NCBI GenBank assembly: GCA_963821525.1
Contig: CAWGED010000005.1
Location: forward strand, 672,001-736,000
Direction: 5' to 3'
DNA: 64,000 bases
Origin: an uncultured Gemmatimonadales bacterium
Lineage (GTDB): Bacteria; Gemmatimonadota; Gemmatimonadetes; Gemmatimonadales; GWC2-71-9
Every line of letters starts with the position of its first letter. Position 1 is the first letter of the stretch. The notes beneath the pieces are model-generated. The model saw nothing but the letters and a program-made list of their open reading frames with translations, made no database searches and was not told the origin of the DNA. Below are positions 32,634 through 32,966 of this stretch, piece by piece. The position numbers and the translations under genes are program-made.

Positions 32634-32670
32634 AAACGAAAAGGCCCGGTTCACTCGGTGAACCGGGCCT
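32634..32670 (-). terminator. intrinsic terminator (attenuator) upstream of metY
   Basis: AGGCCCGGTTCAC-CGA-GTGAACCGGGCCT perfect 13-bp stem followed by TTTCGTTT, about 25 nt before the metY start. Confidence 0.85.
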
Positions 32671-32691
32671 CGCAATGGTCGAATGTTGCTG

Positions 32692-32799
32692 CTATGGGTA
32701 CGCGACTACCCCGATCCGACGCATGCCGAGAACACGGCCCACCCTGAGGGGTGGACACATGCACATGATTCGACAACACATCGGGGAACGCGCGCTCAT
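32692..32799 (-). CDS. putative Met/Cys-rich attenuation leader peptide (35 aa)
   Basis: MSARSPMCCRIMCMCPPLRVGRVLGMRRIGVVAYP*; core codons ATG TGT TGT CGA ATC ATG TGC ATG TGT; GGAGGGG upstream; lies directly before the terminator. Confidence 0.7.
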   Translation of the reverse strand: MSARSPMCCRIMCMCPPLRVGRVLGMRRIGVVAYP

Positions 32800-32862
32800 T
32801 TGCCGGTACGACCCCTCCGAAATGAAAATCCCTGCCGATCTGAGCGCAGGGAATGACTACCC

Positions 32863-32930
32863 GGCGCTTTAGCTCTTTGGTTCGGGGACGATCCCCCGGC
32901 GGGAGCAAGTTGCCATAAATCCGTCCGCCG
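32863..32930 (-). ncRNA. SAM-II-like riboswitch (long-loop variant)
   Basis: CGGCGG-AC-GGAUUUAUGGCAACUUGCUC-CCGCCG-[GGGGAUCGUCCCC hairpin]-GAACCAAAGAGCUAAAGCGCC has the SAM-II hallmarks GAUUU, UUGC and AGCUAAA; upstream of met genes. Confidence 0.75.
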
Positions 32931-32937
32931 TGAAATC

Positions 32938-32966
32938 AACCTATGATTCTTCGGGAATCCTGTCAA
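32938..32966 (-). promoter_or_regulatory. sigma-70 promoter of the met leader
   Basis: TTGACA-17 nt-TAGGTT; predicted start site falls just before riboswitch helix P1. Confidence 0.7.

Follow-up and report, generated by a model that had tools for sequence, protein, structure and literature searches.

The trpL, hisL and thrL leaders are classical leader-peptide transcription attenuators. Two signals meet in one leader at metE of Bacillus clausii, which carries tandem riboswitches for S-adenosylmethionine (SAM) and adenosylcobalamin (AdoCbl), and at mgtA of Salmonella, where a Mg2+ riboswitch is accompanied by the proline-codon open reading frame (ORF) mgtL. Here, we describe the leader of metY in an uncultured soil Gemmatimonadales bacterium, contained in a 64-kb stretch of DNA (assembly GCA_963821525.1, contig CAWGED010000005.1, positions 672,001 to 736,000) that we refer to as the window. 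The leader is read on the minus strand, its features succeed one another within 32966-32598, and it joins an aptamer related to SAM-II to an ORF rich in cysteine and methionine codons. Two described classes of SAM riboswitch resemble the aptamer. SAM-II (RF00521, SAM_alpha) is represented by Sinorhizobium meliloti metZ and metA; at metA it is followed by a terminator that goes unexplained in the available part of PMC9373788. SAM-V (RF01826) is characterized, in the excerpts of PMC6061858 on which we draw, as translational, as having a 2 bp P2a helix, and as occurring in marine alphaproteobacteria and Bacteroidetes. According to those excerpts, its structure comprises a U-rich third strand, a P2 helix whose single bulged U forms a pair with the SAM adenine, two U:A.U triples flanking the sulfonium, A-minor adenines, and a P2a helix; SAM-V has a P3 stem-loop and SAM-II has none. 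For the ORF, the nearest described counterparts are the mycobacterial polycysteine leaderless short ORFs, presented in the accessible text of bioRxiv 10.1101/834739 as attenuators tied to cysteine supply, and the cysteine leader peptides of Actinobacteria covered in the corresponding part of PMC1262725.

We consider it likely that the metY leader acts as two independent termination checkpoints in series, the first responding to SAM and the second to charging of Cys- and Met-tRNA. We also lean, with less assurance, toward the fuller reading that the leader is a two-input gate at successive terminators, in which a pseudoknot reads SAM and the ribosome reads Cys/Met-tRNA charging, and in which the SAM sensor belongs to an uncatalogued, P3-bearing SAM-II subclass confined to Gemmatimonadales. 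A first-pass annotation, made from the DNA letters alone, had placed in this leader a TTGACA-17-TAGGTT promoter, a SAM-II-like aptamer, a GGAGGGG ribosome-binding site (RBS) with a 35-codon ORF, a terminator hairpin with a U-tail, and metY. Each of these was found where that annotation put it, with the aptamer-like element starting at approximately 32932, and the central claim, that one metY leader holds a SAM-II-like aptamer followed by a Met/Cys leader-peptide attenuator, is borne out, and the pair is kept in several Gemmatimonadales genera. The hairpin that it had counted as 13 bp has 14 pairs.

The aptamer and the first terminator

The metY aptamer and the Rfam SAM-II consensus share one order of motifs: P1 5′ strand, GAUUU, GGC, UUGC, P1 3′ strand, an A-rich stretch, GCUAAAG, and GCC. 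The metY aptamer additionally has a variable hairpin, P3, after the P1 3′ strand. All the structural parts named in the PMC6061858 excerpts map onto it, and the positions given there as SAM contacts, namely the third-strand UUU, the bulged U and the AAA that follows it, are all kept. In alignment A1, T14 and T15 of GAUUUA are invariant, T16 is present in at least 90% of sequences, and the AAAG before GAGC is invariant. The divergent loci L156-L162 keep the UUU as well, and every alignment row displayed retains the bulged T (column 95 of joint alignment A4). All 82 aligned sequences have the P3 hairpin, so that the element departs from the absence of P3 that marks SAM-II and is SAM-V-like in this one respect. 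P3 covaries at six of its six pairs (0.282 versus 0.084 for shuffles, a value that 0 of 500 shuffles reach; slid controls, at most 0.102).

Searches of the whole window with Rfam 15 at gathering scores matched no family, and the aptamer falls short of the gathering scores of RF00521, RF01726 and RF01826. Low-scoring Rfam hits near the aptamer (p27_CRE, mir-128, an opposite-strand Guanidine-II, and others; E of approximately 0.09-10) lie far under gathering and were set aside as chance. At one related locus, L156, a permissive Rfam search gave mir-641 at 45.9 bits (E 8e-06) and several further microRNA models at 544-636, where the DNA is probably a GC-rich repeat hairpin. Since the letters of the pseudoknot are nearly invariant in the P3-bearing set, in part because the pattern used to collect that set fixes them, we built a model, R1, from 82 P3-bearing sequences only and ran it beyond the set, on 151 genomes of the order. 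R1 matched 35 genomes: the window's own (89 bits), 17 of 61 further genomes of its family, 17 of 62 of the sister family, and 0 of 27 of a third family. Scores within the window's family were 68-92 bits in 16 genomes and only 23.9 bits in another, G125, whose match was not among the loci inspected. Sister-family scores were 24-33 bits, and the 12 sister-family loci inspected lack P3. All 12 (R1, 26.7-33.2 bits; E 5e-08 to 5e-06) are RF00521 matches at identical coordinates, at 34.8-45.8 bits; ten of them stand at or above the 36-bit gathering score of that family, and the other two reach 35.1 and 34.8 bits. R1 thereby links the aptamer to bona fide SAM-II, which overturns the Rfam miss.

A joint alignment of both aptamer classes (A4, 59 sequences) was examined for covariation. 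In the pseudoknotted structure, 93.6% of cells are paired and 13 of 21 pairs change on both sides, with covariation of 0.239 versus 0.067 for shuffles (0 of 500 reach it) and at most 0.062 for slid controls. P1 and P2b each covary at three of six pairs. The P2b cells are 96.6% paired, and its covarying pairs are U:A/G:C/A:U/G:U, C:G/G:C and C:G/U:A; this signal was not fitted, because P2b is absent from the model that made the alignment. The window's genome also carries two classic SAM-II copies, matched by RF00521 at 41.2 bits (C19:989275-989348, plus strand) and 36.6 bits (C5:813288-813360, minus strand). One precedes metH and the other a cystathionine-gamma-synthase-like (metB-like) gene, and a terminator hairpin follows each; with the P3-bearing copy, the genome therefore holds two SAM-II subtypes. 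Together, these comparisons indicate that, by sequence, the metY aptamer is a SAM-II-type H-type pseudoknot with an extra P3, and the kept contact positions, along with its substitution for classic SAM-II in the same leader layout (see below), suggest that it would bind SAM.

The aptamer is both conserved and specific. Of 401 genomes sampled across the phylum, 33 contain a single match each to a pattern of its core, and none of the 401 matches the reversed control. By family, the counts are 31 of 166 for that of the window (whose own genome also matches and is not counted), 1 of 93 for the sister family, and 0 of 141 for ten others. In GTDB, with one genome per species, the pattern yields 94 stretches; among the 80 listed, 75 are Gemmatimonad- entries. 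The other five, outside Gemmatimonadota (L046, L064, L104, L110 and L118), lack the 5′ half of the aptamer and were discarded as chance. The phylum pattern and R1 tallies include two unpublished genomes, G083 and G177; both were left out of alignments A1-A4, and no claim depends on them.

Directly 5′ of TTTTCATTT, and just downstream of the aptamer, is a CCCTGC/GCAGGG hairpin that behaves as a terminator. A homologous hairpin with a T-rich tail is present in 92 of 95 unique leaders, with a median stability of −19 kcal/mol, which indicates from sequence that this hairpin is the riboswitch's own terminator (terminator 1). Pairing is possible between its 5′ arm and the aptamer tail, AAGCGCCGG, and in free nascent-RNA folds at least 5 nt of the arm pair with that tail and the spacer after it (AAGCGCCGG...) in 87 of 92 leaders. 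By these folds, pairing between aptamer tail and terminator-1 arm is a plausible antiterminator. Aptamer and terminator 1 also occur as a pair without a leader ORF, at nine loci before metX-like genes and at one (L024) before metY. The genes downstream of the aptamer belong to the methionine pathway only (metY, metX and an aspartate-kinase-like gene). For 72 of 96 unique leaders, metY is found no more than 800 nt away, and in 14 of the other 24 the DNA flanks are too short to tell; the aspartate-kinase-like gene is the first gene after the leader at two loci (L156 and L112).

The leader ORF, the second terminator and the genes that follow

Past terminator 1, the leader ORF would start about 130 nt into the predicted transcript, behind a Shine–Dalgarno (SD)-like site. 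A short Met/Cys-rich ORF is found in 83 of 83 leaders of this layout, one of which (L020, scoring 5) is from an unpublished genome. The best 10-residue window of these ORFs holds 3-7 cysteines and methionines, on average 3.7 Cys and 1.8 Met, with at least 5 in 73 of the 83; the reverse complement scores 3 at most, and shuffles score 5 or more in 2 of 415 cases. The runs differ in sequence among genera (MCCRICMC, MCRCKCMC, GCCRMFPC, ACPMCMCGM). In 64 of 82 related leaders, an in-frame start is preceded at a distance of 3-17 nt by GGAG, GAGG or AGGA. The median distance from the stop codon of the ORF to segment 3, the 5′ arm of the second terminator (terminator 2), is 26 nt. The leader ORF is a candidate for translation. 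Third-position T/C changes do not tell coding from structural constraint, because they are neutral opposite G in the helix formed by segments 1 and 2. The cysteine/methionine-rich ORF probably senses amino-acid supply through ribosome stalling. In a same-genus leader, L003, a 1-nt deletion shifts the first ATG out of the frame of the Met/Cys run. The shifted frame reads C-V-V-E-S-C-A-C; it keeps Cys codons because the TGTGT repeats encode Cys in two frames.

Segments 1 and 2 form a hairpin directly after the last Cys codon, segments 3 and 4 form terminator 2, and segment 2 is also the antiterminator strand. Its best duplex with the 5′ arm of terminator 2 has −13.9 kcal/mol; in most sequences the GGTGGAC segment is the best upstream partner of that arm, with −11 to −24 kcal/mol overall. 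The CCCC-loop-GGGGTGGAC element that follows the last Cys codon is conserved in its nucleotides, and the reading frame across it differs by genus, which argues for selection at the RNA level. Terminator 2 itself (14 pairs, of which 13 are Watson–Crick, one is G-U and 9 are G-C; 3-nt loop; −26.3 kcal/mol) has counterparts in 81 of 83 leaders, with stabilities of −19 to −36 kcal/mol; the hairpins picked in the other two were wrong. Over 52 sequences, 94.7% of its cells are paired, and its covariation is 0.224 versus 0.106 for shuffles (0 of 500 reach it). Complementarity between segments 2 and 3 extends to 87.5% of cells, compared with at most 49% when the partner is slid, and compensatory changes occur as GGCGGCCGG:CCGGxCCGC (L015, L121) and GCGAACCGG:CCGGTTCG (L081, L086). 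The fold of this region was then simulated in nascent RNA extending up to segment 3, either free or covered by a ribosome through the last Cys/Met codon plus 12 nt. In the free RNA, 46 of 52 sequences have segment 2 paired upstream, into the codon run, and 7 of 52 have it paired with segment 3; under the footprint, 2:3 pairing appears in 48 of 52. From sequence and modeled folds, the ORF module looks like a trp-type attenuator architecture keyed to Cys and Met, whose readthrough would depend on the charging of Cys- and Met-tRNA. Leaders of one genus, g33 (L013, L022, L060 and others), have a further small conserved hairpin, GAGAGC-UAAC-ACUCUC, located between segment 2 and terminator 2, and its loop contains the ORF stop codon.

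The compound layout extends beyond the genus of the window. A BLAST search with the leader hit 10 of 41 related genomes, comprising five same-genus genomes over the full length at 93-100% identity and five from other genera over the aptamer part only. The pairing of aptamer and Met/Cys leader ORF is conserved over several Gemmatimonadales genera. In one genome of the same family and another genus (G006), the leader runs from a promoter through a classic SAM-II (RF00521, 37.1 bits) and a terminator to an ORF reading MIARAPFRSTACPMCMCGMD... with the run ACPMCMCGM; a second terminator and a metY homologue 67% identical to that of the window come after it. The compound layout therefore predates the P3 variant, and within it either aptamer type can take the place of the other. 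The genome of the window was scanned in full for pairs of ORF and terminator; of 64 candidates, three passed and this locus alone was convincing. When metY was sought in three genomes of genus g44, in order to find the ORF module apart from an aptamer, two were found to hold just a 52%-identical paralogue, and four of five family genomes without the aptamer are also without a close MetY at E ≤ 1e-100.

Coordinates of the leader and of the adjoining genes are collected in Table 1. The promoter pattern TTGACN-17-TANNNT is present in 95 of 96 unique related leaders, with the end of the −10 element mostly 6-10 nt 5′ of GGCGG. A generic promoter scan made no call in this leader, because TAGGTT agrees with TATAAT at just 3 of 6 positions; the promoter call rests on conservation. 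The metY product matches Pfam Cys_Met_Meta_PP (2.9e-139) and NCBIfam TIGR01326 (662 bits, cut-off 495). The first ATG of its frame, at 32610, is missing in four of four same-genus relatives, whereas the ATG at 32598 is kept, with GGAG 6 nt upstream, and judged by sequence the latter is probably the true start. The NCBIfam model for MetY is named bifunctional O-acetylhomoserine/O-acetylserine (OAH/OAS) sulfhydrylase, and homocysteine can feed cysteine through reverse transsulfuration; either point may bear on the predominance of Cys codons in the run. Same-strand adjacency suggests that metY, the aspartate-kinase-like gene and metX (the latter two within 28536..31264) are probably one operon. 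The kinase-like product between metY and metX is a 249-amino-acid aspartate-kinase catalytic domain without the regulatory ACT part, and every NCBIfam aspartate kinase model scores it under its cut-off. MetX scores 309 bits with TIGR01392 (cut-off 500) and has an N-terminal extension of approximately 200 amino acids, which includes a partial beta-carbonic-anhydrase (Pro_CA) match at residues 32-99. On the other side of the leader, neither Pfam nor NCBIfam matches a 288-amino-acid ORF (33032-33898, minus strand) whose end lies 66 nt upstream of the metY promoter.

Table 1. Features of the metY leader and of the genes it precedes, in window coordinates
Feature	Position	Strand	Basis
Promoter: −35 TTGACA 32966-32961, 17-nt spacer, −10 TAGGTT 32943-32938	32938..32966	minus	sequence and conservation
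SAM-II-type aptamer, 74 nt, with extra P3 hairpin	32859..32932	minus	model R1, 89 bits, E 4.9e-25
Aptamer P1	32930-32925 with 32902-32897	minus	
Aptamer third strand, UUU	32919-32917	minus	
Aptamer P2a, GGC with GCC	32914-32912 with 32865-32863	minus	
Aptamer P2b, UUGCUC with GAGC[U]AA; bulged U 32871	32908-32903 with 32875-32869	minus	
Aptamer P3 hairpin	32896-32884	minus	
Aptamer A-rich L3	32883-32876	minus	
Terminator 1: UCCCUGC-loop-GCAGGGA 32852-32829, then UUUUCAUUU 32828-32820	32820..32852	minus	fold, −12.0 kcal/mol
SD-like GGAGGGG, 12 nt 5′ of leader ATG	32812..32818	minus	sequence
Leader ORF, 35 codons and stop, MSARSPMCCRIMCMCPPLRVGRVLGMRRIGVVAYP*	32692..32799	minus	homologous Met/Cys-rich short ORFs
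Met/Cys run MCCRIMCMC (codons 7-15)	32781-32755	minus	within leader ORF
Segment 1, CCACCC 32754-32749; segment 2, GGGUGGGCCGUGUU 32744-32731	32731..32754	minus	folds; 1:2 hairpin directly after last Cys codon
Terminator 2: segment 3 32671-32658, loop 32657-32655, segment 4 32654-32641, T-rich tail 32640-32633	32633..32671	minus	fold
metY (O-acetylhomoserine sulfhydrylase/homocysteine synthase)	31267..32610	minus	Pfam and NCBIfam
Aspartate-kinase-like gene, short	30515-31264	minus	NCBIfam aspartate kinase models (below cut-offs), Pfam AA_kinase
metX	28536-30209	minus	NCBIfam TIGR01392 (below cut-off), Pfam Abhydrolase_1

Proposed serial control of metY and the alternatives

In the two-checkpoint scheme, transcription would start about 7 nt past TAGGTT, and the pseudoknot aptamer would be made first. 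With SAM bound, the 3′ tail of the aptamer (GAGCUAAAGCGCC) would be held in P2b and P2a, so that terminator 1 forms and transcription ends at approximately 32820; without SAM, the tail would pair with the 5′ arm of terminator 1 and the polymerase would continue. Readthrough RNA would then expose the RBS and the 35-codon ORF. When Cys-tRNA and Met-tRNA are charged, the ribosome would reach the stop codon, segments 1 and 2 would pair, and the 3:4 terminator would halt transcription before metY. When charging is low, the ribosome would stall on the run and mask segment 1, leaving segment 2 to pair with segment 3 and block the terminator, with transcription of metY, the aspartate-kinase-like gene and metX as the predicted outcome. 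Each checkpoint would repress, making the leader a two-input gate with multiplied repression in which metY is on only at low SAM combined with poor Cys/Met charging. Six metatranscriptome runs contain part of the stretch, and four were mapped onto the region, where whole contigs span 32678-32885, 32678-32923, 32616-32919 and 32639-32897. These contigs lie within 32616-32923; all bridge terminator 1, none crosses the promoter, and one ends at the foot of terminator 2. This is a weak hint that leader RNA reading through terminator 1 exists, as the contigs carry no true ends, strand or level, and uncovered parts have no significance.

That the contigs give neither RNA ends nor strand is the first of several points that weigh against the two-checkpoint scheme; the others concern one module or the other. 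At the second module, covariation between segments 2 and 3 is weak (0.149 versus 0.137 for shuffles, with 5 of 500 reaching it), double-sided changes are confined to five cells, and at one position 24 of 52 sequences lack a pair. The 12-nt spacing from SD to ATG is long, 18 of 82 leaders lack a clear SD, and the UGU/UGC/AUG-rich strand that encodes the run is itself base-paired in the free fold. The last two of these points would also suit a module that ribosomes do not read, in which this strand is an arm of RNA structure (serving a sensor of another ligand or of a protein, or a constitutive pause or attenuator) and its reading frame is incidental. RNA-level conservation dominates downstream of the run, where frames differ among genera; the first ATG of L003 is out of the run's frame; and 30-codon open frames are common in GC-rich DNA, their chance here being estimated at approximately 0.46. 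We nevertheless judge an unread module unlikely, as genera with differing runs repeatedly combine an in-frame start with a Cys/Met score of 5 or more and with a stop codon at a median of 26 nt before segment 3, and neither the reverse strand nor shuffles have such scores. Even the shifted frame of L003 retains three Cys codons in the run, the run is positioned exactly where a stalled ribosome would free segment 2, and no Rfam family matches the region.

At the first module, terminator 1 is weak in the genus of the window, at −10 to −12 kcal/mol, and the switch that would govern it is not clean in simulated folds: the terminator arm pairs with the aptamer tail in 87 of 92 free folds, and when the 13-nt tail was blocked in a simulation of the bound state, the arm still found upstream partners in 66 of 92 leaders. 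As this simulation did not discriminate between the two states, the switching step at terminator 1 is one that we infer. The aptamer assignment has its own points to answer. In 34 of 81 sequences, P1 lacks its sixth pair; P1, P2a and P2b are, as noted, nearly invariant in the P3-bearing set; and the P2b covariation rests on two divergent P3-bearing sequences (L156 and L162) together with the sister-family sequences. On the two classic SAM-II copies of the window's own genome, R1 scores only 8.0 and 6.4 bits (E 0.8 and 2.5), which is non-significant, with placement correct. The comparison with Rfam covariance models that the first-pass annotation proposed gave a divided answer: no SAM family was matched in 32500-33100 even at E ≤ 10, none of 10 related loci gave a match at E ≤ 1 and none of five further P3-bearing loci at E ≤ 0.1, whereas R1 ties the aptamer to accepted SAM-II.

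The failure of the Rfam SAM models on the P3-bearing form might mean instead that this aptamer has drifted, and that it binds S-adenosylhomocysteine (SAH), methionine, another sulfur metabolite, or nothing. Relative to the classic copies of the same genome, it always carries P3 along with a P2b in which C:G and U:A are swapped, and the presence of both classes in one genome could reflect a division of labor. A change of ligand appears to us quite improbable, more so than an unread second module, given that all the SAM contacts named in the PMC6061858 excerpts (the bulged U, the two U:A.U triples and the following A) are kept, that the P2b changes are compensatory, that the P3-bearing form replaces classic SAM-II in an otherwise identical metY leader, and that it controls genes of the methionine pathway only.

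The first-pass annotation had itself favored a coupled arrangement, in which SAM would close a stem between GCCGG (32865-32861) and CCGGC (32806-32802) around the leader RBS, with CCCTGC/GCAGGG as its inner hairpin, so that SAM gates translation of the leader and terminator 2 alone decides. Both pentamers are present and complementary in the window, CCGGC is kept in two of four same-genus relatives (L002 and L003), the inner hairpin does form, and such a layout is known from S. meliloti metA, where, in the part of PMC9373788 available, a translational SAM-II precedes a terminator located between two AUGs. We regard this arrangement as the least probable of the three, and SAM gating of leader translation as unlikely, since the other two same-genus relatives (L004 and L005) have lost CCGGC and the other genera with the complete layout show nothing equivalent to it, the enclosed hairpin has its own U tract in 92 of 95 leaders and is thus a separate terminator and not part of an RBS clamp, the aptamer and this hairpin stand alone as a unit before metX or metY at 10 loci, and the RBS sits past the U tract, outside any conserved helix. 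The premise that SAM-II usually controls translation also fails, most SAM-II riboswitches being transcriptional according to the PMC6061858 excerpts.

The two serial checkpoints thus remain the reading that we prefer, and it would matter in several ways. Curated models miss this SAM-II subclass, and Gemmatimonadota methionine regulons are therefore under-annotated; a model made from alignments A1 and A4 could recover the subclass. The second module offers a clear example, amenable to testing, of terminator-based attenuation keyed to cysteine and methionine, amino acids outside the textbook leader-peptide set. The leader as a whole would illustrate how a metabolite sensor, for SAM, and a charging sensor, for Cys/Met-tRNA, can be combined on one transcript, and it bears on the tuning of direct sulfhydrylation by MetY to methylation capacity and sulfur amino-acid supply. 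Its small, separable modules would be attractive parts for engineered two-input control.

Comparison with described systems

If both modules work as proposed, the metY leader would contain a terminator-based Cys/Met leader-peptide attenuator and would be a riboswitch-attenuator tandem within one pathway. In the literature covered, which takes in few subscription journals, we found no description of a riboswitch and leader-peptide tandem for methionine or metY; searches for a terminator-based attenuator with Cys/Met specificity, and for a paper on a Gemmatimonadetes SAM-II riboswitch, likewise returned none.

The aptamer is closest to SAM-II, as exemplified by RF00521, by S. meliloti metZ and metA (PMC9373788, in the part available) and by the copies in its own genome. 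It shares with these the H-type pseudoknot, P1, the U-rich third strand, a P2b with one bulged U, a GC-rich P2a, an A-rich L3, a terminator platform, an association with methionine-pathway genes, and cross-recognition by R1. It differs in the 13-40-nt P3 hairpin inserted after the P1 3′ strand, in P1 (GGCGG/CCGCC rather than the classic CGUGG/CCACG), in P2b (UUGCUC:GAGC[U]AA rather than UUGCGG:CCGC[U]AA), and in scoring below every Rfam threshold. With SAM-V it has in common the pseudoknot core and, following the PMC6061858 excerpts, a P3 stem-loop between P1 and the A-rich linker. Unlike SAM-V, it has a terminator, a 3 bp GGC:GCC P2a and sequence kinship to Gemmatimonadales SAM-II, and it gives no RF01826 match.

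The ORF module resembles the trpL, hisL and thrL attenuators, a type mentioned in PMC1262725, in its short ORF with regulatory codons, its mutually exclusive 1:2, 2:3 and 3:4 helices, and its intrinsic terminator before a biosynthetic gene. In contrast to them, it uses Cys and Met codons, sits behind a riboswitch instead of at the 5′ end, and occurs in Gemmatimonadota. The mycobacterial and actinobacterial Cys ORFs are comparable in that stalling on Cys codons, proposed or shown, reports cysteine to sulfur-metabolism genes. As portrayed in the accessible portions of the reports cited above, those ORFs are leaderless, act on access to the RBS of the next gene or without terminators, and consist of pure Cys runs, whereas the metY leader ORF is SD-led, begins about 130 nt into the transcript, mixes Cys with Met, and is followed by a strong intrinsic terminator. 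It is thus not an ORF of the mycobacterial type, that is, a leaderless one at the 5′ end of the transcript that controls RBS access.

As a compound leader, finally, the metY element is akin to tandem riboswitches and to mgtA/mgtL, in all of which two signals are read in one leader; in mgtA, as here, a riboswitch and a leader ORF stand together. The metY leader differs from both in that its two inputs would report on one pathway and in that its modules are separate, each with its own intrinsic terminator.

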